Of a stretch of 64,000 nucleotides of DNA, positions 34,918 through 59,100 are shown piece by piece. Within the stretch, counting starts at the first letter, position 1. Each line of letters opens with the position of its first letter. The notes beneath the pieces were generated by a model. It was given only the letters and a program-made list of their open reading frames with translations. It ran no database searches and was not told the DNA's origin. Origin of the DNA: a virus (taxonomy: Duplodnaviria; Caudoviricetes); the IMG/VR virus record IMGVR_UViG_3300047160_018490, positions 1-64,000 of that record. One strand, given 5' to 3'. Both the position numbers and the translations under genes were made by a program.

Positions 34918-36072
34918 CTACTTGAGGATGATGTAGGGACTCACCATAGTGGTTCCATCCTGTAAGGTTATGGCAGATTGAACCTGGGGCTTGCCATCTG
35001 CCCGCAACCAGACCCTGAAGTCGGTCTGGTTTGTCTTGAAGGCTGGTCCCAGAGTGTCTGCATCAATGAGGACTTCCTGCCTCATACCGACTACGTAAAG
35101 CCAGGGATCGAAGAAGATCAGGTCACCAAGAGAGCCCAGGGTGGACAACTTCTCTGTGATGAAGACCGGCCTGGTGAGGAGGCTCCCCACCTGGCCGCCC
35201 TCATCGTTGGCCTCCACGTTCAGGAAGAAGTTGGCCACCTGGATGAGCTGGGCAACACACGCAGGGGAAGAGGCCCAGATGGCGTTCTTCCAGGAGAAAG
35301 GCAACATCGCCGCTGCCATGTTGGCGATATCTACCTGGAGGATCTGGCTTGGTGTGTGCCTGGATACTGTCTTGGCTGCGGGGGCGTTGATGATCCCCAG
35401 AGGCATCTGGTTGGAGGTGCCTGTGCCCTGGAGGAAGGCATATTCCAGATACCACGCTGCCGCCATCCCGAAGAGCTTCAGGAGGTGATCCTCGCCCTCC
35501 GTGTTAGCGTCCTCCAACCAGTCATTAGAGACCGTGGCGTAGCCCAGAAGGTCCCACGCTGTGAGGGGGTCACTCCTGAACTTGGGCTCTGTTTCGGAGG
35601 GGGCTTGCGAGGTGCCCCACTTGAAGATGAGCCCACCGAAGAAGGGAGAGGTGGCTGCCGACTGGGCCGTCTCGGCATCCACCTTTGGACACTCAGTGGT
35701 GAGGGAGCGCATGGGGATCACATGCGCTCGCGGGTAAATGAAGCTGTTCTCGCTGATGGCCTGGAGGAGCTGGTTGGTAAAGTCCGTAGGCACCAGGTAG
35801 CCACCAACGGCACCCGAGGTCTCTCCCATCGCCGCCTTCTGCACCTGGCCGGGAAGGACACGGAAGGGGCTCCGATAGTGCTTCTGGAGGATGTCTTCTC
35901 CAGCCATTCGGGTGGGTTCAGAGAAGGGGTCCCTGGCAGCCCTTACAGCCTTCAGGAAGCCTGTGAAGGACCTCCGGTGGGGAACCTCCAGAGGGGGAGC
36001 GCCAACCGGGCCACCCCCACGAACCAGGGGGGGACGCATGTTTGGCTTCATTGGCAGTGTCGATACGGCCAT
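34918..36072 (-). CDS. HK97-fold major capsid protein, paralog 2
   Basis: KAAMGETSGAVGGYLVPTDF, AFLQGTG..MPLGIINAPA, RVWLRADGKP. Confidence 0.9.
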   Translation of the reverse strand: MAVSTLPMKPNMRPPLVRGGGPVGAPPLEVPHRRSFTGFLKAVRAARDPFSEPTRMAGEDILQKHYRSPFRVLPGQVQKAAMGETSGAVGGYLVPTDFTNQLLQAISENSFIYPRAHVIPMRSLTTECPKVDAETAQSAATSPFFGGLIFKWGTSQAPSETEPKFRSDPLTAWDLLGYATVSNDWLEDANTEGEDHLLKLFGMAAAWYLEYAFLQGTGTSNQMPLGIINAPAAKTVSRHTPSQILQVDIANMAAAMLPFSWKNAIWASSPACVAQLIQVANFFLNVEANDEGGQVGSLLTRPVFITEKLSTLGSLGDLIFFDPWLYVVGMRQEVLIDADTLGPAFKTNQTDFRVWLRADGKPQVQSAITLQDGTTMVSPYIILK

Positions 36073-36254
36073 CAGTCCTTTTTCTTCTCCCTGCGAGCCT
36101 TCAGTTCCTCCTCTAACTCCTTTTCAGAGAGCTGGGAGAGGAGATGCTGTCTGAGATCGTGGGCCCTATCGAGGAACCTCCGTGCCTCCTCTTCAGAGGG
36201 GAGGGAGTCCTTCGGGGAGTTATCCCTGTCGATGCCAAACTTCGCGTGAGCCAA
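36072..36254 (-). CDS. small helical hypothetical protein
   Basis: TGATG-type coupling to capsid paralog 2. Confidence 0.45.
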   Translation of the reverse strand: MAHAKFGIDRDNSPKDSLPSEEEARRFLDRAHDLRQHLLSQLSEKELEEELKARREKKKD

Positions 36255-36277
36255 GGAAACCTCTATCAGAAAGGGAG

Positions 36278-36345
36278 GCTGCTGGGGGGCCTGACACCCA
36301 CCCTCTCCGTGGGGAATGGCCGGACACCACTCTCCCCCCAGCAGC
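36278..36345. other. perfect 12-bp inverted repeat between the two capsid genes
   Basis: GCTGCTGGGGGG (36278-36289) and CCCCCCAGCAGC (36334-36345). Confidence 0.6.
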
Positions 36346-36377
36346 GGAGTCCCTTGAATGTACCCCTTGAGAGGTTC

Positions 36378-37931
36378 TCAGTTTAGCACAACAAACGGCG
36401 AGATCGTCCATCCCGCCTGGTCCGTGATGGCGTTGTTCAGCCAGGGCTTGCCATCGCACCGGGCGATGACCCGCCACGCCAACTGGTTGTTGCGGAAGAG
36501 GTAATGCGGGCTGACATCAATCTGCATGTCCAACCGCATGCCGATGACGTAGCGGCTCCAATCCACCAGCATCACGTCGCCCTTGGTTCCAAGCTGCGGC
36601 AGCTTCTCGGTGAAGAAGACTGGCAAGCCGTTCAAGAAGGCGTTGGGGAGCTTGGAGGCAGCGGGGCCCCTGTCCGTGGTCATCGTGGGATTGACCCACA
36701 CGAGGCGGTTGCCGGCCGGGAAGGACGAGGATGGAGAGGCGGCGTTGCCCCAACCTCCATCGACCATCATCAGGAGCTGAGGCAGCACGCTCTGATGCAT
36801 GATCCAGGCGGCGTCATCCCAGGAGCGCACCTGGAGGTGGGCCAGCATGGTGGCCGCGTCCTGGTAGAGGAAGCGCGAGGACTGGAGGCGGCCCTGGGAG
36901 ATGGTGGCCGGGGCGTTGAGGATGCCCAGAGGCATCGAGGAGCCGGCTCCCTTCCCTTGCAGATAGGCAAACTCCTTGTACCAGGTAATCGCCTGGCCAA
37001 ACAACTGCGTCAAAAGGGCGTCCAGCCCGATGCCGTTGTCTGCCAGGAGCTGGTTGCTGGAGACGCTGTAGAGGACCAGGTCCCACGCGGTCCAGACACT
37101 CTGCTTGAAGGCTGGCTCCGTCTCGTTGATGGTGGCCGCTTCAGGCTGCCACTGGGCCAGGATGCCGCCGAAGTACGGAGAGGTGCCGCTGGCCTGGACA
37201 GTGGTGATGTCCAGCATCGGCCACTCAGCCGTGCGGGAATTCATTGGCACCACCTTGGCGCGGGGCTCGATGAAGCCATCCTCGGCCGCGATGGTAAGCA
37301 GCTCCTGCATGAACTGCGGGGGGATCAGGTATCCACCCGTCTGGCCGGAGCCTTCTGCGAGGGCTGTCTTGCGCCTCTCATTCAGGAGTACCTGCCCATT
37401 GCGATAGGTGGGCACCCCCACAGTGGCAGCCTTGGCAACGGTGACGAAGCCGTGCTGCCTCTCAAACTGCTCCATGCCGTAGTTTTCGCCAAACAGTCCC
37501 TGCGACTTGGCGATGGCCTGGGCATCCTTGTTGCCTGAGAGGGCTGCCATCGAGACCAGGGCCGGGCCGATGCCGGAGATGCGAGGTCTGCCACTCTTCC
37601 GCATCCCGAACAGGTCCACTGCGGCAGGTGAGGTATAGGCCCCACCCAGGGCCTTCAACTGCTCCACCGGCCAATCGCGGTAGGAGGACTGCCGCCACCT
37701 CTCATAGGAGCGGTCGATGTCCCCGATGATGGCACCCGGAGATGGGCCAGCAGGGGTGCGAGCCATCTTCTCAACGGCTTTCTCGATCTGGTCGAGCCGC
37801 TGGAGGGCGAGAAGGTTGATGTCCGCAGGGGGACGAGGGGGCTGCTGGGGCTGGTAGCCAGGACCACCAGGAGGAGCGCCCGCAGGACGGCGCTGGGGCG
37901 GAGGAGGGGTACGAGTTGGGACGGTCGCCAT
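36378..37931 (-). CDS. HK97-fold major capsid protein, paralog 1, with long N-terminal delta/scaffold region
   Basis: KTALAEGSGQTGGYLIPPQF, AYLQGKG..MPLGILNAPA, RVIARCDGKP; strongly GC3-biased codons. Confidence 0.92.
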   Translation of the reverse strand: MATVPTRTPPPPQRRPAGAPPGGPGYQPQQPPRPPADINLLALQRLDQIEKAVEKMARTPAGPSPGAIIGDIDRSYERWRQSSYRDWPVEQLKALGGAYTSPAAVDLFGMRKSGRPRISGIGPALVSMAALSGNKDAQAIAKSQGLFGENYGMEQFERQHGFVTVAKAATVGVPTYRNGQVLLNERRKTALAEGSGQTGGYLIPPQFMQELLTIAAEDGFIEPRAKVVPMNSRTAEWPMLDITTVQASGTSPYFGGILAQWQPEAATINETEPAFKQSVWTAWDLVLYSVSSNQLLADNGIGLDALLTQLFGQAITWYKEFAYLQGKGAGSSMPLGILNAPATISQGRLQSSRFLYQDAATMLAHLQVRSWDDAAWIMHQSVLPQLLMMVDGGWGNAASPSSSFPAGNRLVWVNPTMTTDRGPAASKLPNAFLNGLPVFFTEKLPQLGTKGDVMLVDWSRYVIGMRLDMQIDVSPHYLFRNNQLAWRVIARCDGKPWLNNAITDQAGWTISPFVVLN

Positions 37932-45036: not shown

Positions 45037-46962
45037 TCAGGCTCTTCCCCCTGTGACTTGCATGATCTTCCTCCCCAGGGCCTGGATACGGGCGAGGACT
45101 TCAGGGGCGATCCTTCCCTTCACGGGGCGCCTCCGAGGAAGTGCTCTCCTTCCTGTACCCTTGCAGATGCGGCAGCCAGCTCCCTTGCAGGTGGCGCACT
45201 TGTCCATCTCGCCATCCCCTTCTTCCATGTCCTTCACCTCCTCAGCGAGGTTGGCAGGAGAGGGGCGCCTCTCCCTGGGGTTCATGAGGCCACCAGAGGG
45301 CCACCCAGGGATGACATCCTTCAGCTCCTCGGGGTTGCCCTCATCTTGCAAGTTTACCCCCGCGCCCATCCCCTGGCGGAGAGCAGCCTCTCCTGGGTCT
45401 TCCAGGTTCTCGCCAGCGCCCATGCCTTGCCTCAGGAGGGCCTCTCCCGGGTTCTGGAGGTGCTCTACCTCCTTCAGCTCATCCGGGTTGCCTTCGTCCT
45501 CCAGGTGGGCTCCTGCACCCATTCCCTGCCTCAGGGCGGCCTCTCCTGGATCGGGGAGGTTCACGCCTGCCCCCTCTCCCTGGCGAAGGGCGGCCTCACC
45601 AGGGTCTTGCAGATGGGCATCCTGCCGGTCTTCGAGGTCCTTGGGGCGCCCTCTGGCTGGAGCGCCACGAGGGGGGGTCTGCCGCATGGGGACTCCTGGG
45701 CCCTTCTGCCTGATGAGGTAGGGCCGCCCATCCTTTCCCCAGCGAATCCTGTGCTTGAGGATGAACCATTGCAGCGTCTTGGGGTTCTGGTAGCGCTCCA
45801 GGATCTCGTCATCGTCCTCGCTGCCAGGGGCTTCTCCAGCTCCACCTCCTGCGCCACCACCAGGAGGCTGATGCCCTTCCAGAGCTTCCTCTTCAGGAGT
45901 CTCCTCCCCTGCGAAAGGCTGGGCGTCACCGTGACCTCCCTCTCCCTGGTTGGTATCGAGGTCGCTGCTTCCAGGGGGCGCTGCACTTCCCTGTCCTTCA
46001 GGAGTATCTCTTCCTCTCTCCAGCTCCTCGATGGCTGCTCTCTCGATGGCCTCCAGCTCGGCCATCTGCTGCGGGTCCAGGTTACCTGCACCTGCCGCTC
46101 CCTGATCTTCTCCGCCCTGCACCACGCCATCCTGCTCACCAGGAGGAATTTCTGGCTGCCTCCCCGAGATGCCGAGGTCACCAGGAGGGATCTCTCCCTC
46201 CTCCACGCTGCCTTCTTCCCCTGGGTGGGCCTCATGGCCACCCTTCTCAGGATCGACCTCCAGGGCCTTGGAATACTTGCGCGTGTACCCCTTCTTGGCC
46301 TCTCCTCCAGGGGCGCCGATGCCGTGATGTTCAGAGAGGAGATTGCGCAGATGCTGCATGATGCCAGGGAGCTTGTCTACCCCCAGCTTCTGAAGCTCCT
46401 GAGCGATCTTGGGGTGATCCATCATCGGCAGGATATCCCGGATGTAGTCCACTCCTGTACCCAGGTGGTCGTGCAGGTCTCTGAGGACTCGCGCACTCTG
46501 CTTTACAGGAGTGGAGTCCCCTTTTCCTCCCTGAGAGGGGGTTCCTCCCCGGGGGGAAGGAGGGGTAGAAGGAGCAGGGCCCTTGATCTCATCTGGGGAG
46601 CCTACAGCCTTACCGCGGGTTCTGGTGGTCATCTGCTTGCCCTCTCTTACATTCCGGCCGAAGTGCATCAGTTCATGAGGCTCTGCGGTTGTCTCGTCAC
46701 CCCACTCATCCCAGGAGCTGCGACGGCGGTTGTAGTGCGTCCTTATCTTGATACCACCTTCATGGGGCGGAACGCTATAGACTTCTCCGTACTCACCCCT
46801 GTAAGGGTGGTTTGTACCATAGCGGATATAGACTACATCTTCAGGGTTAAATTCTTGCCCCCCTGCTTCCTCTTCCTCCGGCTGCTTCTCCTGCTCGGGA
46901 GGCCACCTCTCCTCAGGGACCAGGTAACCTCCTGCGGCTCCTGAACTTTCATTGAGGGCCAT
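45037..46962 (-). CDS. scaffold-like head protein with capsid-like N-terminal peptide, KOW/SH3-like domain, tandem repeats and CxxCxGxG finger
   Basis: ATG 46962 after GGAG gives MALNESSGAAGGYLVPEE; 4x (D/N)PGEA(A/L)LRQGxGAG; CATCKGAGCRICKGTG. Confidence 0.75.
   Translation of the reverse strand: MALNESSGAAGGYLVPEERWPPEQEKQPEEEEAGGQEFNPEDVVYIRYGTNHPYRGEYGEVYSVPPHEGGIKIRTHYNRRRSSWDEWGDETTAEPHELMHFGRNVREGKQMTTRTRGKAVGSPDEIKGPAPSTPPSPRGGTPSQGGKGDSTPVKQSARVLRDLHDHLGTGVDYIRDILPMMDHPKIAQELQKLGVDKLPGIMQHLRNLLSEHHGIGAPGGEAKKGYTRKYSKALEVDPEKGGHEAHPGEEGSVEEGEIPPGDLGISGRQPEIPPGEQDGVVQGGEDQGAAGAGNLDPQQMAELEAIERAAIEELERGRDTPEGQGSAAPPGSSDLDTNQGEGGHGDAQPFAGEETPEEEALEGHQPPGGGAGGGAGEAPGSEDDDEILERYQNPKTLQWFILKHRIRWGKDGRPYLIRQKGPGVPMRQTPPRGAPARGRPKDLEDRQDAHLQDPGEAALRQGEGAGVNLPDPGEAALRQGMGAGAHLEDEGNPDELKEVEHLQNPGEALLRQGMGAGENLEDPGEAALRQGMGAGVNLQDEGNPEELKDVIPGWPSGGLMNPRERRPSPANLAEEVKDMEEGDGEMDKCATCKGAGCRICKGTGRRALPRRRPVKGRIAPEVLARIQALGRKIMQVTGGRA
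45317..45620 (-). repeat. intragenic tandem peptide repeats
   Basis: DPGEAALRQG(E/M)GAG-like x4 and DEGNP(D/E)ELK x2. Confidence 0.8.
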
Positions 46963-46963
46963 C

Positions 46964-49900
46964 TTATTCTTCTCCATAAAGATACCCATGAGGCAGGTGC
47001 TCATAGAATGCAGCAATACTAGTCCTTGCCTCCTGGGTCAACTCATGCCAGGGGCGAGGGTAATTAGGATGGTTGGGGTCCTGAATGGGGTGGGCAGCCC
47101 TCGCGTTCTCCCAGCGAGTCATGGGATCTGGCTCGGCGTCGTTATGATATTCCTCTTCTGGCTGCTTCTCTACATCCCCTTCTAGAGCGTTCTCCTCCTC
47201 CTCTCCTCCCTCACCGAAAAGGGCGCCATGAGGTAGATGAGAGTAGAGGTCTGCTATGTGCCCTCTCTCACCTTGAGGCATCCTGTCCCAGGCAGCTCCG
47301 GGACCAATCTCTGGGTAATGCTCGGCCAGGTACTCACTGGCTCTTCCATACCTCTCCGAGGGGTCGTTGTAGGGAGTCTCCGCGGGGAGGTGTTCTTCCT
47401 CCTCTTCTCCCTCTGCCTTCTCCCACTCCTCCCAGTAGGGATCTACCTTCTCCCCGGGGGAAGAGGAAGGAGGATGTTCCCACTCCTCCCAGTAGGGCTC
47501 GGAAGTAGGAGGCTTGGGGTTTCTGGCGTCATGCTCCCACGCCTCGTAGTAGGGATCGTGGGCGGCCTTCTCCTCCTCTTCTGGCTCTACCGTATGTTCA
47601 GAAGGATGAGGCCCTGGGTCGCCTACCATCTGGAAATACTGGCGGTTGGATTGTCTCTCTCCCTGAGACAAACCTTCCCAGGGAGTAAGAGGATGTTGAG
47701 GATGCTGCTCTTCCCAGTAGCGCCTGTGAGACTCCCACCTCTCTTCAGGAGACCTGGGAGGGGGGTTAGAAGACTGCTTCTCCTCGTCTTCCACTCCCTC
47801 GTAGTATTCCTCACGCTCAAACGGCCCTGGGGTATGCTCCTCCCATTCGGGGTATTCCTCGTCCTCTGAGGCTTCAGAATGGTGCCTGGGGGTTGGTAGA
47901 GGGTGTCTGCAGCCTTCATGGTATCCCTGAGACATCTCGCTCCAGGTGGGGCGCACATGGACCCCTGGATTCAGCGCCTCCCGGTCTATGTCATGACGCC
48001 TGTGAGTTTCCCATACCTCATCCGGGGTGATACTGGCTTTTCCCTCCTCCAGAAATCTCTCATGCTCGCCTGGTTGATATTCCTCCCACTCAGGATACTC
48101 CAGGTGAGAGGGGTGTTCGGAGTGGTGGGCGGGTTCTGGATGAAAACCAGTCTCCGGGCTAACCCCTTGCAGGACATCTCTACCAGTTTGGGAAATTTCC
48201 TCCCAGGGCTCGCGGGGGCCGAAGTAGCCTATAGGATGGCGTCTTCGGAAGGATTCATACCAGTCATCGAGAGAACGGGGTGCCTTCTCCTCCTCAAAGT
48301 CCGAGACTACAGTAGCCTCCGCCCTGTGAGGACCCTCGTCCTCCTCGTGCGCGTACCTTGTAGCCTGACGGTCGCGGGTAGACTGCGAGAGTCCTTCCCA
48401 GGGCCTACCCTCTGACCCAGTCCTTCCATACCTCTCCTGGCTCTGATGGCGGGAGGTCTGGTAGCGCTCATCAGGAGTGCGGGGAGCTTTCTCTTCCTCT
48501 TCAGGGTATGCCCACTCAGGAGGCTCATTCTCTCCCAGAGGGCTTCCCCTCTCCCCTTCTCCTTCTTCCTCTTCTGGGGGGGTGTCCTCATCGTAGGGGT
48601 CCACGTAGCCAGTATGCTGTCTCAGTCCAGCGTAATAGTCCCGCAAGTTTTGGTTGAGGTCACGCCAGTGGAGGCCGGTGGTTCCCCTTCTCCTGGCAGA
48701 TTCCCACGCCTCGTCATGGGATCGGGGAGCTTTCTCTTCCTCAAGTGGCTCCCACTCAGGGTACTCCTGAATTTCGCTTTGCTCTGAGGGGTGGAAGCCA
48801 GGGTCCCTTACCATACCAGGCACGAGATCCCTCTGACCCTGGGTGAGATTCTCCCATTTTCTACCGCTGCCACTGCCTCTATCCTCTCTATATCTCCTCT
48901 CAGACTCCCACACCTCATCAGGAGCACGGCGGAAGGGCTGGCCTTCTTCCTTCCTCCTCTCCAGCCTCGCCTTCAGCCTCCTGTATTGCGGAGCTACCTT
49001 CTCCCCGATACCAGGTATCTGCTCGTTGATGCCAGGGCGAATATGAGCGGGAGGGCGAAGAGGAGCATCCTCTGCCTCGTTGATGGTCCTACCACGATTA
49101 AGCTCATCAGCATGTGCCTGAGCCTCCGCAAGAGTGTCGTGGTCCCCAGCGGAGCCAAAGAAGTAGGGGTGTTCCGGGTCAAATGTCCCCTCGGGGCCGA
49201 AGTGGGGGTGGAACTCGGTGGGGTAGACTCCATATCTCCCTGGCTGCTCGTGGTGTGGGCGAGCTTCATAGTAGGGGGCGCCTGGGTTGGCTGTAATGGC
49301 AGGATTCCCCTCTGGCTGCTTCTGTACCCCCTTCTCTGCGTCCAGCCTCCTGTAGCCAGCAGAGTGGGCCAGTTGGTAGTGCATGTCCCCAATCCAGTCA
49401 TTGGCCTCATCAATGTTTTGGGCAACGAAGACGGGATCATGGGTCATCCCTGCTGGGTGCTGGGGAGAGCGGTGGACATCAAAGGTGCCTGGCTCATCCT
49501 CTCTCTCTACCATGTGATACCAGGTCGCCGGCCTGCCTGTGCGGAGGTCGTGGATGGCCTTCCCCTCGATGCCAGGGAGCTGCTCATTCCTCGCCGGTCT
49601 GTTCTGGACCCCTCTTCCACGCCTGGCCCTCGCAGTCCCTGTCATCGTGGCCCACATTCCCTCCTGGAGCCTCCGGGCATGGGCATGGGCCTCCTCGGCA
49701 GTCTGATGCGGTGGGAGCGGGTTCTGCGGGTTTTCTATGTTACGGCGAAGAGGATGGTGCTCGGAGGGGGTGACAGCATGAGCCCCTTCCTCAGTGGGCT
49801 CAACATCCCAGTAAGGGTGCCCAGGGTTGGCCGTTACTACCGCGCCCTGCTCCTCCTCTCCTTCCACCTTGGGGGCCTTTTCCACCCCTTCTTCCAGAGC

Positions 49901-52900
49901 GTTTTCCTCTTCTTCAGGGGGTAAATGGAGATCGGGGTCCTCGTACATGCTTTCGTAATTACGCGCAATACCACCAGCATACTCTTCCGTCATGGGGCCA
50001 GTAACTGGGCCTTCTCCGTGGGAATGAAACGCTGGGTGTTCCCGCGTTCGATAGACGCTGTAGCGCCCTGGGCGAACTGGTGATAGCCTGGTCTCGTAGA
50101 ACCTGAGTTCTCCTGTCTTGGGGTCCGCCTTCTCTTCCACCCCCTCCAGACCCTTGTTGGGCTTCTCCCCTGCCTCCTCCAGCGAGGAGTAGCACACGCG
50201 ATGGGCTTTCCCCGCGTCTGCACCCTCTGCTTCCAGATCAGCGATGCAGCGCTCCATCCTCTCCGTGTGGTAGTGGTGGGGGTGCTCCACGTTGGGCTTC
50301 CGGATCTCTTCCCCTTCGAGGTCTTTCTCTTCCTCTGCTGGGTTGAGAGGAGTGCAGTTAGGAGAGAGGTGCGCCATCCGGTTGATGGACTCCTGGGCCC
50401 GCTGGTTCTGCCTCTCTGCCTCCTCTTCTGCCTCTGCCTGCGTGCAGTGGAGAGACCACCCCACTCCTGTACGGCGGGATGCTACCTGGTAAAGCTCCGG
50501 CTGCTCCTCGCTGGGGCGGACGTAGAAGTGTCCTGGGCTCTCTTCTCCTCCTTCTGCCTTCTCCCGGGGAATAGGAGATACCCTGTTCTCGTAGGGGTGG
50601 TTGAGGTCAGGGTTGTGACCCACCAGGAAGCGGTACGCAACACCTTGGACGCGCTTCCCTGTCTTGGGATCTACTGCTTTCTCCTCCTTACCCTGATCCC
50701 ACGCCTGGAAATACTGCTCGCCAGTCCAATGCCCTCTACCAGGATTGTCTGTATAGCGGTCAGCATGGGCATTCAACTCATCCGCTCGCTGCTGGGCTTC
50801 TTCGAGTTCATATCGGCCCACGTCGCGGTTTCCATCTGGATCGACAAGGGAGTGCGTGCCATCCTCATTGGGCACAACCCTCCAGTGGAGTGATTGCTTC
50901 CTTCTCTGCAAGCGGTCCCACAGCCTCTTGCACTTCTTCTCCGCGATGGTGCCACTCTCATCCTCTGGCACCTCCGTCTGATCTCCCCACTTCTCGAACT
51001 CCCTGACCTTCTCTGCTTCTGCCTCCGCCTCCGCCTGCGTCTGGTGAGAAGAGGTAAACCACACCTCCCCGTTGGCCCGTGTGTGCCGCACCAGGTAGGG
51101 ATACACCGTCCTCCCTGGGCGGTAGATGACATCTACCTTCTTCTCCACTTCCAGTTCAGGAGTGTCCCCAGTTTCGATGTCCGAGCCCTCTCCAGGGTTA
51201 GTCTCGGGAGGGATGCCTGTTCTATCAATCTCTCCAGGAGTGCCCCTTCCTGCTTCCATGTCGGCCTGGTTGGCGTCCTTCTCAGAGGGGTGAGGTGTCT
51301 CGTCTACTACTCCCATACTCCCGTGCCGCCAATTCAATTGGCTTGTGCAGTACCTTACCTCCTCTGGGGTGGCAGCGTAGTAGACATGCCTACCAGTGCG
51401 GGCATGAACGATCTCATAAGGGAGGTGCTCTATACCCGTTCTCCTGGCCTCGTAGAGGGGCTCGTCCTGGCCTGTAAGGGGGTCTTCTGTACTGTCCTTC
51501 TCTTCAGGAGCAGGGAGGTTGACTCTCGGGTTATCGGGCCCTTGCAGCTCGCCACTCATGATCCTCTGGTGGGCAGCCTCCTGGTAATCGCGGGCCATAT
51601 CCTCCGCTTCCCAGTGGGGGTGGAGGTGAGATGCCAGGCGCCCTCTACCGCCCTCTGGATGAGATCCAGTCCTATATAGAGCGTCGAAGTCCTCAATGCT
51701 GGGATGCTCCCGCAGTTCATAGAAGGGCTCCATCTTCTCCCCCGTCTTGGGGTCCAGGGCCTTCTCCTCCCTCTCCGGCTCCATCTGGTACCGCGGTGGC
51801 GTGCCTTCGGTATCCCGGACCCACTGGCGGTTTTCCTCTGCATGCCTGTCCTGCATTGCCAGCTCGTCCAGGGAGTTCTCGGCAAACTGCTCTACCTGCC
51901 TGTGGGCCTCTTCAGGAGTACGGAACCCCCCTGTGCGCAATCCAGCCTGTCCTAGAGGGTGCTGCTCCGTGCGGACGATCTGGTAGGCGCCAGGGATGTG
52001 TGGGTCCTCCTCCACGCGCCACCAGGGATGATTCTGCTTCTTCATCTCCTTGTTAGGCGCCCAGATCGTCTCCAGCAGGTTCTCCTCCGCAATGTGAGCA
52101 ATCGTCTCCGCCTCGTGCTGCGTCCTGTAGCCAGTCAGGCTTCTCGCATCCCTGCCCTCGGGGTGGAACATGGTAGGGATGACATCGAAGGTCCCTGGGT
52201 TCTCCTCGCTCTCCTGGACGTGGTAGAAGGACTTTTCCACTGCTCCTGAGAGAGCATTCTCCTCCTCTGCAGGGATGTTGGCCGCCTCCGTCCTCTGCTG
52301 GCTTACCAGATTGGCGTAGTGCCTCCTGGTGGCTTCCTGCTGCCTGGCGTGCTGAGTGGCCCATCTCGCTCCGGCGGCGGCCTCCTCATGAGATGTGTAG
52401 CCACCAAAGCCTGAGTAGCGCCCTGCCCTGCCATGAGGATGGTGCTCCGAGTAGTGAAGGTCATACCTCTCAGGGTCGTCCTCGTTCTGCTGCACCGTGA
52501 ACCAGGGAGGAGAGGTGTCTTTACTCACACTACCTCCTGCAACCTTCTGGCTCTCTTCCCAGGTAGCCTGATCCATACGGGACTGGACGGTGTCCTCGTG
52601 CATATCTCTGGCAAGTTCCCTGGCCTCTTCCGGAGTGAGGTGTCTGTGCGGTACTCGGTCTGAGGGATATTGGTGGATATTGGGGTGGTCAGGGGTCCGA
52701 AAGATCCGTGGGCGCCCGTTTTCGTCCCTGACTCCGTAGTAGGGCTTATCGTGGAAGCCCTTCTCCTCCTCATTCCTTCTGTGGATGTCCTCTGTCCTCA
52801 GAGAGACATTCTCTGCGAGCTGTGCCTGGATGCGGTCTATGACTTCCTGGGCCTCCTGAGTGGAGGTGTAAGGGCCACCACCCCAGATGGGCTTGCCCTG

Positions 52901-55900
52901 ATGGTCTCTGCCACCCAAGGGGTGCTCGTCCGTCCTCCAGATGTCATGGGTGCCTGGTACGTTGGGGCGCTCCACAATCTTGTACCAGGGCGGGCGGTCT
53001 TTTCTCACTCCTGAAGAGAGGGCATCCTCGTGGTGCTGTGGGGCATCCCACTGCTCGGGGTCTTCATTTCTAGACCATTCCAGTTGCCGTAACCCGGCTT
53101 CGGCACTGGCTTCCTCCCTGGAGTCACGGGTTGTGAGGGGGTAAGACATCAGTCCAGGAGTGGCGTAGGGATGGTGCTCACTCCTGTAGACTCCCCATCT
53201 CCCTTCAGGGGTCTGGCGGACGTGGAAGTAGCGGTATCCTTTCTCCACTCCTTCGGAGAGGGCATGTGTAACAGGAAGACCATGTCCATGACCGAGGTCA
53301 TCCGTTCTTACCTTCTCCAGGTCCTGTGCGCCATCCAGGGCGTCTTCCTCGGTGTCATAGCGGGTGGGTCCCACGGGAATGGTTTGATCCCCAGACTGGA
53401 AGAAGGGATGAGACTCAGTGCGGAAGATTCCATAACCCTCCTGATAGGGCTTGACCTCGAAGAAACCCTTCTCCACTCCTGAAGAGAGAGCAGCCTGCAA
53501 GTATTGAGGTGGGGGATGGTGTAGCGCCCTATCTTTGATACTCTCCGTTGTATCTTCCACCAGAGACTGAGCCTCTTCCCTGCTTCCCAGGAGGTAAGTG
53601 TTTACCCGCATTCCAGGTCTTCCCCAGGGATGGTGTGCAGTACGGTAAACACTCCAAAAAGTCGGGTGGTCCTCGTCTTCCCGTGCCTCGTACCACGGGC
53701 CTTGCTTCTCCACCCTCTCCTCTAACCCCCTTGCTATCCTTTCCCCCGGGGGAAGCATGGAGAATGGATGCTCTCTGGGGTTGCCTGTGCCTCTGGGGGC
53801 GTCATCATACTCCGGGCCCAAAGACTCCATGTGCCTGGCCCAGTCTCTGGCCTCTCCGTGATCCAGGAAGGAGAGATGAGAGTGCCTCACTCCTGAAGGG
53901 GAGACAACCTGGAAGTGACCCATATCCGGGTCATGCTCCACGCTCCACTTACCGGATGGTTTGTCTTCTATTGGAGGGACGTAGGGGGCGGTGGCGCCTG
54001 TGCTCTCTTCTTCCTTTCCTTTCTCCACACCTCCAGAGAGGGAGTTCTCCTCGACCTGGAGAGGGATGTCACTGATCCCTGGTTCTTCTTCACCGCGCCA
54101 CAGGTCGTACTGTCTCTGCCCAGCAGCGATCCAGGCATCCTCGTGGCTGGCATGGGTGGAGAGAGGCGCCTCATCAGGCCCATGAGGGCCGTATGGGTGG
54201 CGCCCACTTCGGTAGACTCCATACCCTCCTTCTGGGGTTGGGAGGACCAGGTAGTGGCTGTAGTTCTTCTCCACCTCTTCTCCCTGATAGACGATGGAGC
54301 CGTATGTGCCCTCAGAAGGCTCCGTCTGGCCGCCGAGGGAGTTCTCCTCGATGTCCGGAACATTCACGCCCCTGTTTTTTCCCTCCTTGTACCAACCATC
54401 TACTGCGTCCTGGAGTCTGTCTGCTCTCTCCTGCTGCTCTTCCAGAGTGTTGGGACGGAAGGGGGTTATTCCCTCTCCCATAGGATGGTGCTCAGTACGA
54501 TATAGCAGGTACAGCTTACCACCTGGGTTCTGTACAATCCGGTAGTAGGGCCTCTGGAGGGCTTTCTCCACTCCCTCCAGGGCGTCCTCCAGATCCATCC
54601 TCTCCATGAGGGTCCTGTGTGTCTGATCGTGCAGCCTCTGGGCTTCTTCCTCGGCAAGACCCTGGGTGGTATGGTCTGGAGACTCGGGAGAGGAGAGTCT
54701 TCCCTTGGGGTGGTAGGAAGACCTCCATACGTCGTAGTTCCCAGCCGGGCGCTGGTGGACCTCGTAGAAGTAGTGTGGGGATAGGTCCTTCTCCACACTG
54801 CCTTCCAGGGCATTCTCCTCATAGGCTGGAAGGCCCTGCCCCATGCCCAATCTCTCTGTCTGCATCCTCACCTCGCTAGCCGTTAGCTCGCGTGCCATGT
54901 CGTGGGCAGAACCCTCCTCAAGGCCTCCGATGATAACCATTCCTGCGTCACCACCTGGGTGGGTGGCAGAGCGGCGGACCTCGAACTGACCCTGGCGCCG
55001 GCCTTCGTGGACCTCATAGTAAGAAGGTGGTTCAGGAGTACCCTCATCTTTCTGCACACCTCCCTCCAGAGCGTGCTGCACAGGAGGGGTGTAGGGGAGG
55101 CCCTGACTCTGGCCTGCCCAGTCTGTCTCTATGCTACGAGAGCGTGCAAACCTTCTCGTCCTCTCCTGTGCGTCTGCCTCTGCCTGCTCTGGATCCTGGA
55201 AGTGGGTGATCCTGGCCTCTCCATAAGGGTGCTGGGAGGTACGCCACACCTCATGCCTCTCCCCTCTGGAGCGGACCTCGTAAAGGGGAGGAACTCCGGT
55301 GTCTTTCTCCACCCACCCAGAGAGGGAGTGCTGCACAAGGGGTGTAGGTGGTAGACCCTGCTCTCTTCCCAGTCTGGACGTGTCCATGTTCTGGTAGCGA
55401 GTGGCCCCCAGACGGTAAATATCACTTATAGTCCTGGCACGTTCGCCTGCCTCTTCCTGGGTTGAGTAAGGACCCATACCAAGGTCCTCCCCACGAGAGG
55501 GAGCGTAGGGGTGCTCCTGAGAGCGGCGAACACGCCATCCTTCTCCCTCCACCTCGTAGGGCTCATAGAACTGGGGGAGCTTCTCCAGGGCGGTGGCTAC
55601 CTCCTCAGGAGTGGCACCAGCTTTCTCTATACTTCCTTCCAGGGAGTATTGCTGTATGTGAGGGGGTTGGTTGACTGGTAGACCCTGGTTTTGCCCCAGT
55701 TCGTCTGTCAGTCTCCGCTCCCACCTTCCTGCGTAGTGCCTGGCATCCTCTTCCAGGTGAAACCTGGCCAGGGGGGAGTCTCCGTGTTCGCCAACCATCG
55801 AGGTTGCATTCCAGGGGTGGTTTGCTGTCCGGAAGACGCCATAGCCGCCCGCATGCGGGCGGACCTCGTAGAAGGACTTTTCCACGCTGCCTTCCAGGGC

Positions 55901-56131
55901 GTTCTCCTCTGGAGCTGGTGTCCTCCGGTGGCCGCCTTGGTTCACGTTTGCCTTGTCCTCATCCTCGTAGCTCTCATCGAGCTGCCTGGCTGCTTCCCTT
56001 GCAGCATCCTGCCCCCAGCGTGCAGGAAAGACCATGCTCTCCCCCATATAATGCAGGGCCGTCCTCCAGACCTCCCAGCGCCCTGCTTCCTGGTTGTAAC
56101 GAGGCTCATAGGTAGGAGATGCTTCACTCAT
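46964..56131 (-). CDS. giant acidic tandem-module protein (3055 aa), putative processed internal head polyprotein
   Basis: about 26 family-A modules (YEV...Y.V.R[ST]..HP...T.EEA..A) and about 8 family-B modules, separated by ALEGxVEK/EEEK linkers; ATGA coupling to the protease gene. Confidence 0.85.
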   Translation of the reverse strand: MSEASPTYEPRYNQEAGRWEVWRTALHYMGESMVFPARWGQDAAREAARQLDESYEDEDKANVNQGGHRRTPAPEENALEGSVEKSFYEVRPHAGGYGVFRTANHPWNATSMVGEHGDSPLARFHLEEDARHYAGRWERRLTDELGQNQGLPVNQPPHIQQYSLEGSIEKAGATPEEVATALEKLPQFYEPYEVEGEGWRVRRSQEHPYAPSRGEDLGMGPYSTQEEAGERARTISDIYRLGATRYQNMDTSRLGREQGLPPTPLVQHSLSGWVEKDTGVPPLYEVRSRGERHEVWRTSQHPYGEARITHFQDPEQAEADAQERTRRFARSRSIETDWAGQSQGLPYTPPVQHALEGGVQKDEGTPEPPSYYEVHEGRRQGQFEVRRSATHPGGDAGMVIIGGLEEGSAHDMARELTASEVRMQTERLGMGQGLPAYEENALEGSVEKDLSPHYFYEVHQRPAGNYDVWRSSYHPKGRLSSPESPDHTTQGLAEEEAQRLHDQTHRTLMERMDLEDALEGVEKALQRPYYRIVQNPGGKLYLLYRTEHHPMGEGITPFRPNTLEEQQERADRLQDAVDGWYKEGKNRGVNVPDIEENSLGGQTEPSEGTYGSIVYQGEEVEKNYSHYLVLPTPEGGYGVYRSGRHPYGPHGPDEAPLSTHASHEDAWIAAGQRQYDLWRGEEEPGISDIPLQVEENSLSGGVEKGKEEESTGATAPYVPPIEDKPSGKWSVEHDPDMGHFQVVSPSGVRHSHLSFLDHGEARDWARHMESLGPEYDDAPRGTGNPREHPFSMLPPGERIARGLEERVEKQGPWYEAREDEDHPTFWSVYRTAHHPWGRPGMRVNTYLLGSREEAQSLVEDTTESIKDRALHHPPPQYLQAALSSGVEKGFFEVKPYQEGYGIFRTESHPFFQSGDQTIPVGPTRYDTEEDALDGAQDLEKVRTDDLGHGHGLPVTHALSEGVEKGYRYFHVRQTPEGRWGVYRSEHHPYATPGLMSYPLTTRDSREEASAEAGLRQLEWSRNEDPEQWDAPQHHEDALSSGVRKDRPPWYKIVERPNVPGTHDIWRTDEHPLGGRDHQGKPIWGGGPYTSTQEAQEVIDRIQAQLAENVSLRTEDIHRRNEEEKGFHDKPYYGVRDENGRPRIFRTPDHPNIHQYPSDRVPHRHLTPEEARELARDMHEDTVQSRMDQATWEESQKVAGGSVSKDTSPPWFTVQQNEDDPERYDLHYSEHHPHGRAGRYSGFGGYTSHEEAAAGARWATQHARQQEATRRHYANLVSQQRTEAANIPAEEENALSGAVEKSFYHVQESEENPGTFDVIPTMFHPEGRDARSLTGYRTQHEAETIAHIAEENLLETIWAPNKEMKKQNHPWWRVEEDPHIPGAYQIVRTEQHPLGQAGLRTGGFRTPEEAHRQVEQFAENSLDELAMQDRHAEENRQWVRDTEGTPPRYQMEPEREEKALDPKTGEKMEPFYELREHPSIEDFDALYRTGSHPEGGRGRLASHLHPHWEAEDMARDYQEAAHQRIMSGELQGPDNPRVNLPAPEEKDSTEDPLTGQDEPLYEARRTGIEHLPYEIVHARTGRHVYYAATPEEVRYCTSQLNWRHGSMGVVDETPHPSEKDANQADMEAGRGTPGEIDRTGIPPETNPGEGSDIETGDTPELEVEKKVDVIYRPGRTVYPYLVRHTRANGEVWFTSSHQTQAEAEAEAEKVREFEKWGDQTEVPEDESGTIAEKKCKRLWDRLQRRKQSLHWRVVPNEDGTHSLVDPDGNRDVGRYELEEAQQRADELNAHADRYTDNPGRGHWTGEQYFQAWDQGKEEKAVDPKTGKRVQGVAYRFLVGHNPDLNHPYENRVSPIPREKAEGGEESPGHFYVRPSEEQPELYQVASRRTGVGWSLHCTQAEAEEEAERQNQRAQESINRMAHLSPNCTPLNPAEEEKDLEGEEIRKPNVEHPHHYHTERMERCIADLEAEGADAGKAHRVCYSSLEEAGEKPNKGLEGVEEKADPKTGELRFYETRLSPVRPGRYSVYRTREHPAFHSHGEGPVTGPMTEEYAGGIARNYESMYEDPDLHLPPEEEENALEEGVEKAPKVEGEEEQGAVVTANPGHPYWDVEPTEEGAHAVTPSEHHPLRRNIENPQNPLPPHQTAEEAHAHARRLQEGMWATMTGTARARRGRGVQNRPARNEQLPGIEGKAIHDLRTGRPATWYHMVEREDEPGTFDVHRSPQHPAGMTHDPVFVAQNIDEANDWIGDMHYQLAHSAGYRRLDAEKGVQKQPEGNPAITANPGAPYYEARPHHEQPGRYGVYPTEFHPHFGPEGTFDPEHPYFFGSAGDHDTLAEAQAHADELNRGRTINEAEDAPLRPPAHIRPGINEQIPGIGEKVAPQYRRLKARLERRKEEGQPFRRAPDEVWESERRYREDRGSGSGRKWENLTQGQRDLVPGMVRDPGFHPSEQSEIQEYPEWEPLEEEKAPRSHDEAWESARRRGTTGLHWRDLNQNLRDYYAGLRQHTGYVDPYDEDTPPEEEEGEGERGSPLGENEPPEWAYPEEEEKAPRTPDERYQTSRHQSQERYGRTGSEGRPWEGLSQSTRDRQATRYAHEEDEGPHRAEATVVSDFEEEKAPRSLDDWYESFRRRHPIGYFGPREPWEEISQTGRDVLQGVSPETGFHPEPAHHSEHPSHLEYPEWEEYQPGEHERFLEEGKASITPDEVWETHRRHDIDREALNPGVHVRPTWSEMSQGYHEGCRHPLPTPRHHSEASEDEEYPEWEEHTPGPFEREEYYEGVEDEEKQSSNPPPRSPEERWESHRRYWEEQHPQHPLTPWEGLSQGERQSNRQYFQMVGDPGPHPSEHTVEPEEEEKAAHDPYYEAWEHDARNPKPPTSEPYWEEWEHPPSSSPGEKVDPYWEEWEKAEGEEEEEHLPAETPYNDPSERYGRASEYLAEHYPEIGPGAAWDRMPQGERGHIADLYSHLPHGALFGEGGEEEENALEGDVEKQPEEEYHNDAEPDPMTRWENARAAHPIQDPNHPNYPRPWHELTQEARTSIAAFYEHLPHGYLYGEE

Positions 56132-59100
56132 ACCCCTATCCTCCTTGCGAGGGCCTCGATGCGATGGAGGAGTTCAGGAGAGAAGGCTTTATCAGATGGC
56201 TTTGGGGTTTCTCTGTACTGCCGGTTGTGACGCTCCACCCAGTCCAGGAGCCCACCCAGGTGACTCGACTGTGACCACAAGGCTTCACCACTGGGCCTGT
56301 GGATGATCTGGTAGAGGCCACTCAGGTGAGACTCCTCATGGGGACGCACCTCGTAAATGTCCTCTGGGTCCTCTACCCAGGTAATATCTTTGGGGTCCAC
56401 CTTCTCTATGCTCTTCTCCTCCTCCACCTCTCTCTGAAGGCTCCTGATGGTTGCGCCTGGGCCCTGGGGGATTTCCTCTGCCCGCAGAGGTCTCCTTCTT
56501 GGGGCGCCTCCTCCTGCTTGCGGTAGAGGAGGAGGAAGAGAAGCAGGAGAAGGAGGTGGAGTCTTCTCTGGGGCGCGCCTATTCGTGTGCAGGAGGAGGT
56601 TACTCGCTGCCTGGTTGTGCAAGTGGCTTACGTAGGAGTTGGCCCTATCCAGGGTGTCAGTCCTTACAGCCGGCTCATCACTGGCGCCCATAGGGTGATG
56701 TTCACTCCGGTGAATCCCGTACCCACCTTCTGGGTGGTCCCTTACCTCGTAGTAGGGCATCTCCGGTGGCCCTGGCTTCGATGCTGTGGACGGTTGTGGA
56801 GGCTCTTCTCCCTGACCCGCGCCCACGTCAAAGGGCGCGTCCTCAGGGTTCTGATGCACGAGCGCTGTGGGCTTGGCTGGACGGCGGGGTAGTGGTGGCG
56901 GTCCCTTCTGCAAGCTCTTCATGGTCTCTGCCTCTGTAGTGAGCTTGTTTGCCAGGGCCCTCTGGAGGCGGTCCCTGTTCTCTTCTGCTCTGTACCAGTC
57001 CGTCCACGCTCCTACGGGTGGGCCACCAGTAGGGGGTGCTCCTGAAGGGTGATTGGAGGTCCTGAAGACCCCGAAGCGGTCGTTCTCCGTGGGATGGGGG
57101 AGGACCTCATAGAGGGCGGGGAAGTCCTTCTGGATGGCCTTGTGGTACTCGGCGGTATCGGCTGTCTCATCAACGTAATTGGCATGGAGTCCCCTGGCAA
57201 ATCGGTGAGCCTCCTCTTCCGTTCCCGTATCTAGGATCGGATACCCCTCTCCAACACCGTAGGGGTGGCTTTCCGTGCGGTAGACACCAAACTTACCATT
57301 CTTCATAGGGCGGACCTCATAGTAGAGGGCCTTCCTGGCTGCCTTATGCTCTTCCTCCCGGACAGTGCGCAGGTTCATGTAACGGGCGTGCATTGCGCGG
57401 GCATACTCTGCAGCCTGTGCCTCATGATCCGTCTGATAGACCGGCGCCTCTTCAGGACCCCAAGGGTGAGTGTCTGTACGATAAACTCCATACAGGGGAG
57501 GGTCATCATTGGTAGAGCGGACCTCGTAGATGAGTTTCTTCCTCACTCCCTTTTCAGGAGTAGACTCTCCTCCCTCCCATGCCCGCAGAGTGCCTGGGGC
57601 GTCCCAGTAGGCACAGCAATTCCTCTTGTTGACTGGCTGACCCTTGATGCGCTTCTCCTGGCAGATGCCGCCCTGGTTGTACTGGCAGTTACCGCAGTTG
57701 CTGCCCTCCACTCCTTCCCCGTAGGTGATGAAGTCCGCCGCCTGTAGAGCTTCAGAGGAGACCTGGGGAAGCTCGCCACCCTGGGTATCGAGGGCCTTCC
57801 TCGTTTCACTTGGAGAGCCTTCGGCGGACTTCCCGATCTCGTCAAGGATAGCGTGTGTATCTAGATAGCGAGCATGAAGACGCCTGGCTTCTGCGTAGGC
57901 TTCCTCCTCCGAGTGTGTTTCATAGATGGCATAAGGGTACTGCTGCTGCTGCGGGTGGCTTGGCGAGCGGTGGACTCTGTAAAGGGTAGAGCCCTCATCA
58001 GGAGGCCGCACCTCGTAGATGAGGGCCTTCTCCACCACATCCTTCTTGCAAGGGCATGCCTTCCCCCTGGAGCAATTCTTGCAGCCGCAGGAGCCCTTGA
58101 AATGTTTTGGAATGCGGTGGAGGAACCCTGGATTGTTCTCTGAGTGCTCTCCTACAGGGTCCTCGCTCTCTTCAGGATGGGGAATAAGATCCTCTGGAGG
58201 GTCTATACCCTGAAGTGCTTCCCCAAACGTGGGAGACCTTGTGTCACCTTCCAGCCTGGCCAGTTCCCGAGAACGCCGAGCTATCCTAGCCTCCTCGGAT
58301 GCAGAGGTATACTGAGGATCATATACCCAGTCTCTTGGGTGTCCGGACCCGAAAGCCCATTCCCTTTCATCTGTGGCAAAACCTTCTGGGGTGTATTCGT
58401 TATGATGAGGTCCCACCCCTTCTGGCCTGTCTGCCTTTCTTAAACCTTTCTTGTCCTCTCCAGAAGTAGGAGGGTCCACATCACCTTCCAGCACCTCTCT
58501 CGCTTGCATCTCCCGAGAACGCTGATTGATGCGAGCCCTTTCACTAGCCATGCTGATTGGGGGAATATCGTGGCGCCATTCCTCTGGATTGGGGCCATAG
58601 GGAGGGTGCCAGTCCCAATCTTCCTCATGCTCACCAACAGTGCCCCATTCCGGGTCGTGCTCTGGCCTCCCTATCTCGTTGGGGTCTGGCTCAGGCTCAG
58701 AGGCCGCCTTCTCCTCGGGACCCTCTATCTTGTCCAGGTCCTCGGCCCTTCGGTTGATCCTCTCCATCTCCTCTTCAGGAGTACCCTTGGGATCACGCTG
58801 CCACTGGTGAGAAGAGGACTCTCCGTAATCCCTGCTGGCCCGATCTGCGGTTGCCTGTGCCTGCTCCAGAGTAGTGCCAGGTGGCTGAGGTATGTCGTGT
58901 CCATACTCAGTGTGTCTGATGTAGGTCCCGCCATTTGGGTACTGCCCCGCAGCCCAGCGCCCCTTCTGGAGGTCCTTCTCCTCCTCCTCGATGGGTCTCC
59001 CCTGCTCGTCTGTATCTTCCACAGCCCTCAGTGTCCCTGAGAGACGGTTTATCCTCTCCGTCTCTGCTTCATGAGTGGTGGGTGGTGCATTCCCCCCAAT

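Follow-up and report, generated by a model that had tools for sequence, protein, structure and literature searches.

In a 64,000-nucleotide stretch of a tailed-phage genome (positions 1 to 64,000 of IMG/VR record IMGVR_UViG_3300047160_018490, Caudoviricetes; hereafter the window), we found that a 641-amino-acid (aa) protein, W641, begins with a copy of the sequence that opens the N-arms of the phage's own two capsid proteins. The reading frame of W641 runs on the minus strand from an ATG at 46962 to a stop at 45037. Sequence comparison identifies W641 as the scaffold half of an ancestral protease-scaffold polyprotein, in which the break before W641 falls at this N-terminal motif, here called the box. 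In the reading that we favor, and to which we give somewhat better than an even chance, the box is a maturation-cleavage site shared by capsid and scaffold, and the scaffold family as a whole carries a C-terminal helix that would anchor it to the capsid.

The similarity between W641 and the capsids was apparent in searches made in both directions. When the N-terminal 17-mer of W641 was scored with BLOSUM62 against all 84,325 peptide windows of the six-frame translation of the 64-kb window, capsid 2 (61) and capsid 1 (54) ranked first, and the next best match scored 31. A hidden Markov model (HMM) made from capsid N-arms only (14 unique sequences, 18 columns) was searched against 287,660 residues from the window and the related loci; its best non-capsid match was the W641 N terminus (22.1 bits, independent E-value 2e-5), with unrelated noise at or below 10 bits. 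Reciprocally, an HMM trained on the scaffold boxes of other phages (66 boxes) scored W641 at 30.6 bits, capsid 2 at 25.5 and capsid 1 at 19.4, with noise at or below 3.8 bits. The match to both capsid N-arms that had been proposed in an earlier annotation of this sequence (the original prediction) is therefore confirmed, and its statement that no capsid fold follows also holds: W641 has no Pfam match and no PHROG match, and its AlphaFold model consists of helices plus one small two-strand element, with no HK97 fold.

The two capsid genes lie downstream of W641, with approximately 7 kb of other genes between W641 and capsid 1. They encode proteins of 517 aa (capsid 1) and 384 aa (capsid 2) that match Pfam family PF05065 at 1e-31 and 8e-27, respectively. 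In both capsids the Pfam model begins at GGY, such that GGY.VP forms its first positions, and the box is preceded by a delta-like N-terminal extension, of 188 and approximately 78 residues. At the DNA level, the boxes of W641 and capsid 2 are identical at 32 of 51 nucleotides (63%), and the same codon is used at 4 of the 11 positions that share a residue. This divergence, together with the scrambled codon choice, indicates that the box has been kept by selection at the protein level and was not copied recently; recent gene conversion from the capsid gene can thus be ruled out. We likewise ruled out that W641 is a remnant capsid gene, as its orthologs place the box in the scaffold family.

Those orthologs reveal the ancestral arrangement. 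A phmmer search with W641 matched a 914-aa metagenomic protease-scaffold fusion (P0003; E 4.8e-11), which contains an HK97-type protease domain, an internal box preceded by Lys, a W641-homologous region and a C-terminal helix resembling that of W641, and whose gene lies directly upstream of two capsid genes. Loci retrieved by way of capsid 1, nine of them viral and several from metagenomes, showed the same plan: a single gene, upstream of the capsid genes, encodes in order the protease (with or without an AAA module), the box, four CxxCxGxG zinc ribbons, a helical core, Gly-rich repeats and the C-terminal helix. By blastp, W641 matched six relatives at E-values from 2e-13 to 1e-3, with no more than about 30% identity to any relative. 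It retains the elements of the scaffold core, namely the hairpin, the GEEG..PP motif, the EILERY module and the Gly-rich repeats, and shares invariant columns with the relatives in an alignment (A2). The phage of the window has no single polypeptide of this kind upstream of capsid 1; the gene is split into open reading frames (ORFs) of 2035, 3055 and 641 aa. The first of these, W2035, lies upstream of the 3055-aa ORF and carries an HK97-type head maturation protease and an AAA module (Table 1). Both ends of the split gene can be traced to one 1386-aa fusion protein (locus L011): blastp maps W2035 to its protease (56% identity) and AAA block (69%), and W641 to its scaffold part. The description of W641 as scaffold-like in the original prediction is thus upheld, in that W641 is orthologous to the scaffold half of fusions encoded directly upstream of capsid genes, and its model is helical or disordered with a confidently predicted end helix. 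Gene position in the relatives, the helical or disordered model and the C-terminal helix point indirectly to a putative scaffold function for W641, which would entail binding the coat protein, serving procapsid assembly and leaving before or during DNA packaging.

The protease(-AAA)-scaffold family is large and known only from metagenomes. A profile of seven scaffold parts, searched against 1.84 billion cluster representatives (clusters at 50% identity), returned 438 matches at E-values of at most 1e-3, including 92 at 1e-10 or below. No relative of the family was found among the GTDB species genomes. Among the INPHARED cultured phages there was no match to the first 41 residues, and a fused relative matched only through its protease domain, in 3 records. 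The one scaffold part of the relatives that is covered by Pfam is the zinc ribbons (DUF7895/DnaJ_CXXCXGXG).

The box is conserved in the homologs of W641. It is detected at 5 bits or more in 63 proteins, where it is nearly always internal (positions 280-1390 in proteins of 800-1700 aa) and sits at the boundary between protease and scaffold, with a Lys before it. The consensus is Lys followed by AL.ESSG.AGGY.VP. With the first Gly of GGY numbered 0, the 72 boxes that we collected have Lys at -10 (57/72), Leu at -8 (63/72), Ser at -4 (60/72), Gly at -3 (70/72), the Tyr of GGY at +2 (68/72), Val at +4 (52/72) and Pro at +5 (37/72); Lys and Arg are enriched at positions -14 to -11. Two mini-proteins, P0095 (146 aa) and P0080 (201 aa), consist only of a small N-terminal part, a Lys-preceded box, CxxCxGxG ribbons and the C-terminal helix. 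Their composition suggests that box, ribbons and helix may constitute a minimal functional unit.

To place the box relative to a characterized cleavage site, we aligned the HK97 gene 5 product (gp5) over its full length with nine capsids of this family. HK97 residues G113 and P118, each in an invariant column, line up with the first G and the P of GGY..P, and the box corresponds to gp5 residues 103-118. K103 accordingly occupies box position -10, where most scaffolds have their conserved Lys and W641 has Met1. The diverged arm of HK97 itself escapes the small box HMMs, and the register comes from the full-length alignment. In HK97, the maturation cut K103|S104 falls in a flexible stretch, and residues 105-130 are not visible in Prohead I (PMC10275583). 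The box of the present family is also predicted to be disordered. We judged AlphaFold models by their predicted local distance difference test (pLDDT) scores and secondary structure. In the model of a fused relative (P0005, a monomer model from 50 sequences), confidence is high for the protease, zinc ribbons, hairpin and C-terminal helix, and the box has a pLDDT of 26-35; the W641 box likewise scores low and has no secondary structure. These models indicate that the box behaves as a linear motif within a flexible linker. A Lys-preceded box that lies in a disordered linker between enzyme and scaffold, in the HK97 register, is what would be expected of a copy of the capsid maturation site.

From these features we infer cleavage at the box, by the following mechanism. 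In both capsids, the box would extend across the maturation cut and over the first ~15 residues that are retained. The head protease would recognize the box as it does the capsid site and cut itself free of the scaffold, such that it would be released by the same act that trims the capsids. In the phage of the window, the gene break would coincide with the cut bond, the start Met standing in place of the P1 Lys. As a general rule, an initiator Met is removed before Ala, and its removal here would generate the same N terminus that cleavage would give in the relatives; were translation to start upstream, cleavage would remove a short leader ending in Lys, to the same effect. The C-terminal helix would anchor the scaffold beneath the shell, and the split-off W2035 carries a copy of its own. 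Gene fission exactly at the cut bond fits a natural domain and processing boundary.

Fission just upstream of the box has recurred in the family, and in each other case the Lys is kept in the leader that precedes the box: 6 aa in P0066, at most 20 aa in L023 and 48 aa in L012. In L012 (6196-9635), the protease and scaffold genes are separated by an opposite-strand gene for a 225-aa Cys-rich protein (no Pfam match), which seems to split a small domain and resembles a mobile insertion by which the fusion was broken. In L023 (3314-7473), the fusion is distributed over at least three genes, which encode an 841-aa protease-AAA protein, a 272-aa protein with the box, zinc ribbons and hairpin, and a 201-aa protein with the EILERY module and the C-terminal helix; approximately 160 nucleotides with stops in all frames precede the box gene. 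The family thus offers natural experiments on a gene broken at the box or immediately before it.

Whether W641 itself begins at the box depends on its start codon. The original prediction had taken the Met before the box, ATG 46962, as the likely start. In favor of this start, a GGAG-type site lies 4-9 nucleotides before the start in most genes of this phage, and ATG 46962 has one, nine bases upstream; in addition, two bases separate this ATG from the stop of the preceding 3055-aa ORF, an arrangement consistent with stop-start coupling. Neither ATG 46989 nor ATG 46977 has a Shine-Dalgarno sequence upstream. In contrast, the database gene call (P0002) starts nine codons earlier, at ATG 46989, and so gives the box an immediately preceding Lys, in the capsid spacing. 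We consider ATG 46962 the probable start and an upstream start distinctly less probable, although still a serious candidate. Fusion of the 3055-aa ORF with W641 by frameshifting is very improbable: we judged a +1 shift unlikely since the overlap of the two frames is limited to about 24 codons and GAA, which precedes the stop, cannot re-pair. Reading back from ATG 46962, the W641 frame is closed after 26 codons. With either simple start, mature W641 would be predicted to begin at the box, through Met removal or through a cut after Lys. The junctions of the giant ORFs, ATGA (56128-56131) and TAAGATG (46960-46966) on the minus strand, suggest translational coupling of the 2035-, 3055- and 641-aa products.

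The same facts bear on a skeptical reading, which we consider improbable: that the W641 box is a functionless leftover of a recent split, or that its N-terminal position is an artefact of the start codon chosen, the true product arising from an upstream start or a +1 shift. This reading draws on the Lys that the database call places before the box, and on the fact that all three other split relatives keep a Lys-ended leader. It is opposed by the usual GGAG and the stop-start coupling at ATG 46962, which the upstream ATGs lack, and by the closed frame and the inability of GAA, the last sense codon, to re-pair in the +1 frame. Decay is also difficult to reconcile with the fact that W641, for all its divergence from its relatives, has the best-scoring box.

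Several observations weigh against a simple shared cleavage site. The cut site is placed by alignment with HK97, and its assignment in this family is therefore a predicted one. The conserved stretch continues for ~15 residues beyond the putative scissile bond, which is longer than usual protease subsites. If W641 starts at ATG 46962 it needs no cleavage, yet of all scaffolds it has the top score with the capsid HMM; a box maintained at full strength in such a protein hints at a role beyond directing a cut. The spacing of the Lys also differs. The original prediction had equated the W641 N terminus with capsid arms freed by a cut after Lys; the motif is indeed the same, but the Lys of the phage's own capsids is invariant at -11, one residue further from GGY than in most scaffold boxes and in HK97, which have it at -10. 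Lys at -11 does occur in a minority of scaffolds and in the in-frame codon before Met1 of W641. A test for covariation between scaffold and capsid boxes across 12 genomes gave no signal in support of a common reader, and the variant box of one scaffold subgroup (..SDGRI-GGY..) has no counterpart in the capsids that those genomes encode. Finally, the AlphaFold model of P0005 fails to place the box in the protease cleft, a weak result given that it is a monomer model built from 50 sequences.

The length of the retained stretch might instead reflect binding. In the original prediction, the N-arm copy was a capsid-docking signal: the freed N terminus would bind the site or partner of the capsid N-arm and, with the C-terminal helix, tether the protein in the prohead or head. 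Consistent with this idea, the W641 box is at full strength where no cut seems needed, its synonymous sites are scrambled, which indicates that the amino acid sequence is under selection, and ~15 conserved residues lie on the retained side of the bond. In the relatives, however, the box is internal and Lys-preceded, its HK97 equivalent is disordered in Prohead I (PMC10275583), and AlphaFold predicts disorder for the box in both W641 and P0005. Moreover, every capsid subunit already bears its own arm, and the similarity ends at VP, short of the arm segment that gains order in Prohead II. As originally stated, the docking claim is not supported, and we consider docking unlikely, less so than the improbable leftover but less likely than the shared maturation-cleavage box. 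If the box were a docking tag, it would represent a new cargo-loading signal for HK97-fold shells.

A combination of both functions can also be envisaged, in which the box first directs the cut and the N terminus so exposed goes on to bind another element in the prohead. One candidate partner is a protease surface away from the active site, which would keep enzyme and scaffold together; another is the C-terminal helix of a second scaffold molecule, which could produce head-to-tail scaffold chains or self-inhibition. There is a precedent in phage 80alpha, whose scaffold contacts the capsid N-arm through a 'helix-and-hook' (PMC5744158); in the present family, an arm-like box and a C-terminal helix occur on one chain, and the box has been kept after gene fission. 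Nevertheless, by pLDDT and secondary structure, the AlphaFold models of W641 and P0005 give no sign that the box touches any other part of its own chain, be it protease or C-terminal helix, no covariation was seen in the 12 genomes, and the reading is wholly inferential. We regard it as quite improbable. A more general version, which we consider less likely than not, is that HK97-type head maturation uses the box as a portable handling tag: any protein bearing it would be treated as a capsid subunit is, with a cut at the equivalent bond, and the retained stretch would afterwards hold or position it. If so, the extreme conservation of the first PF05065 positions would be imposed by the assembly machinery (protease or scaffold helix) rather than by the mature lattice, and phages would reuse the box to load and process non-capsid head proteins. 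Under the shared maturation-cleavage reading, which we continue to prefer, a box read by the HK97-type protease would offer a testable specificity determinant for a protease family with poorly defined substrate recognition, and would help to explain the strong conservation of the start of the capsid N-arm.

The second element of the favored reading is the C-terminal helix. The original prediction had noted that the C terminus of W641 resembles that of W2035, and our analysis agrees: in the six-frame BLOSUM62 scan, the helix 16-mer of W641 scored 46 against the last residues of W2035, the next best match scored 27, and the mean was -15.5 (standard deviation, 8.4). The two helices are identical at 34 of 48 nucleotides. 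The helix is a hallmark of the family, whose C termini follow the pattern (S/A)P.(V/L), then helix, then (T)G. A further point against the favored reading belongs here: an HMM of the relatives' C termini scores the W641 helix at 5.4 bits only, and its homology rests on position and pattern. Neither the 3055-aa ORF nor the 377-aa split-off protease of L012 has a C-terminal helix of its own. That W2035 has its own copy after the split is expected of an address tag needed by each separately made protein. By analogy with the C termini of scaffolds and proteases in other phages, the helix most likely anchors W641 under the capsid shell. Many family members carry a Lys 2-5 residues before the helix, which by analogy with the herpesvirus M site could be a release cut.

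As a whole, W641 is Gly-, Glu- and Pro-rich and, in a model built from a 55-sequence alignment, mostly disordered (mean pLDDT 56). The confident parts are the hairpin, a helix at residues 297-318, the module at residues 382-418 and the C-terminal helix, modelled at residues 620-637; a Foldseek search against the PDB returned nothing at E-values of 1e-3 or below, only generic helical hairpins. Whereas the relatives have four CxxCxGxG ribbons immediately after the box, W641 has two, near the C terminus, and a low-confidence region follows its box. Judging from the sequence, the domain order has been rearranged in the phage of the window, where the two ribbon motifs lie just before the C-terminal helix.

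Table 1. Features of W641 and of related genes in the window, with the basis of each assignment.
Feature	Position	Strand	Basis
W641 gene, scaffold-like, 641 aa	45037..46962	(-)	ORF and translation; orthology with scaffold half of protease-scaffold fusions
N-arm/maturation box (putative), residues 1-18, Met then ALNESSG..GGYLVP	46909..46962	(-)	similarity to capsid arms; pLDDT 44-52, no secondary structure
Conserved helical hairpin, residues 155-213	46324..46500	(-)	pLDDT 89-97; best conserved core in alignment A2 of relatives
Conserved motif GEEG..V..G.IPP, residues 248-260	46183..46221	(-)	invariant columns in alignments A2 and A3
Helix-plus-two-strand module with invariant EILERY, residues 382-418	45709..45819	(-)	alignment A2; pLDDT 76-81
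Gly/Ala-rich repeats, residues 451-550	45313..45612	(-)	align with 'G.VQR.GG.G..L' repeats of relatives
Two CxxCxGxG zinc-ribbon motifs, residues 589-604	45151..45198	(-)	sequence
C-terminal amphipathic helix, residues 618-638	45049..45111	(-)	pLDDT 91-95
Alternative nine-codon leader ending in Lys	46963..46989	(-)	database gene call
Shine-Dalgarno-like GGAG (46975-46972) and stop codon of 3055-aa ORF (46966-46964)	46964..46975	(-)	sequence
3055-aa modular ORF between the two halves of the split fusion	46964..56131	(-)	ORF; without C-terminal helix
W2035, 2035-aa protease-AAA protein, other half of the ancestral fusion	56128..62235	(-)	PHROG head maturation protease 89-233, Pfam AAA 661-778
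Second copy of C-terminal helix, end of W2035	56131..56184	(-)	score 46 vs next best 27
Possible degenerate box in W2035 (RK, AL, then GGELP), residues 1479-1490	57766..57801	(-)	sequence; lead only
Capsid 1 N-arm box, K188 to Q206	37314..37370	(-)	Pfam model start, capsid HMM
Capsid 2 N-arm box, K79 to D97	35782..35838	(-)	Pfam model start, capsid HMM

Further features of the window and of the related loci were recorded alongside this analysis. The two diverged PF05065 capsid genes (window 34918-37931, minus strand) are kept as a pair wherever the contig extends far enough (L001, L003, L005-L009, L014, L020, L023 and L025), each with its own Lys-preceded box. The capsid 2 box nearly always reads GGYLVP, and that of capsid 1 is variable at the residue following Tyr. 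The possible degenerate box in W2035 sits before a region of the module that resembles the 3055-aa protein; neither the capsid-arm HMM nor the scaffold-box HMM detects this site, which may be the protease's own release site or a chance resemblance. The head modules of the relatives contain a Mu F-like gene, which in L024 and L025 adjoins a gene for a dual-specificity phosphatase-like protein. The head modules of these two loci (L024:1098-3140 and L025:2790-4451) also contain NUDIX-domain genes, one of them fused to an ADP-ribosyl-exotoxin-type domain (PF03496). The NUDIX, PF03496-type and phosphatase-like products could be enzymes carried in the virion.

Protease-scaffold fusions and C-terminal capsid-binding tails are textbook features of head assembly, and the system described here can be compared with several of them. 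It is closest to HK97 in that the capsids belong to the same Pfam family (PF05065) as gp5 and the protease is of the HK97 type; the HK97 protease, gp4, is reportedly loaded into proheads via its C-terminal tail. HK97, however, lacks a separate scaffold, and the capsid site is not copied in its protease, whereas here a second, non-capsid protein family carries that site. In the herpesvirus assemblin-scaffold pair (UL26/UL26.5, with R and M sites), a protease is fused to a scaffold with a release site between them, a C-terminal tail binds the major capsid protein, and a separate scaffold-only product is made. W2035 and W641 mirror this layout of protease and scaffold. The herpesvirus sites, in contrast, resemble each other and the capsid protein is uncut, whereas the site described here copies the capsid cut site together with the start of the retained arm; and the herpesvirus scaffold-only product arises from a nested start, whereas here the gene has been split, with an inserted 3055-aa ORF.

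In phages lambda (C/Nu3), Mu (I/Z) and P2 (gpO), the C-terminal portion of the protease gene encodes the scaffold, and both products share one C terminus. A Mu F-like gene is common to Mu and the head modules of the relatives, but Pfam, PHROG and INPHARED searches found no sequence relation to the lambda, Mu or P2 proteins, and the C terminus that those products share by in-frame nesting is here present as two separate copies that have diverged (34/48 nucleotides identical). We know of no capsid-arm copy described for lambda, Mu or P2. The scaffolds of P22, phi29 and SPP1, whose C-terminal helices bind the coat, resemble W641 in that a short C-terminal helical element is borne on an elongated, helical or disordered protein encoded beside the capsid gene. 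They differ in that there is no sequence similarity and no Foldseek match, and in that the capsids here keep their own delta-like N-terminal extensions. Encapsulin cargo-loading peptides and the capsid targeting sequences of T4 are short terminal peptides that load proteins into an HK97-fold shell. They work as the docking idea supposes, and the comparison is relevant only if that reading is right.

The nearest parallel to the box itself is in 80alpha, in which one processing motif is common to the capsid and scaffold proteins, and the capsid N-arm is contacted by the scaffold C terminus (PMC5744158). The resemblance is that both proteins have the same short conserved motif at a processing site, a putative one in the present family. 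In 80alpha, however, the shared part is the removed leader, cut at F|A by the host protease Prp, whereas here the shared part lies mostly on the retained side, and the enzyme is presumably the phage's own HK97-type protease. In the literature we found no scaffold described as copying both the cut site of its capsid and the start of the retained arm. What sets this system apart from those above, as judged by sequence, is that a non-capsid protein family has copied the capsid cut site together with the start of the arm that the capsid retains.

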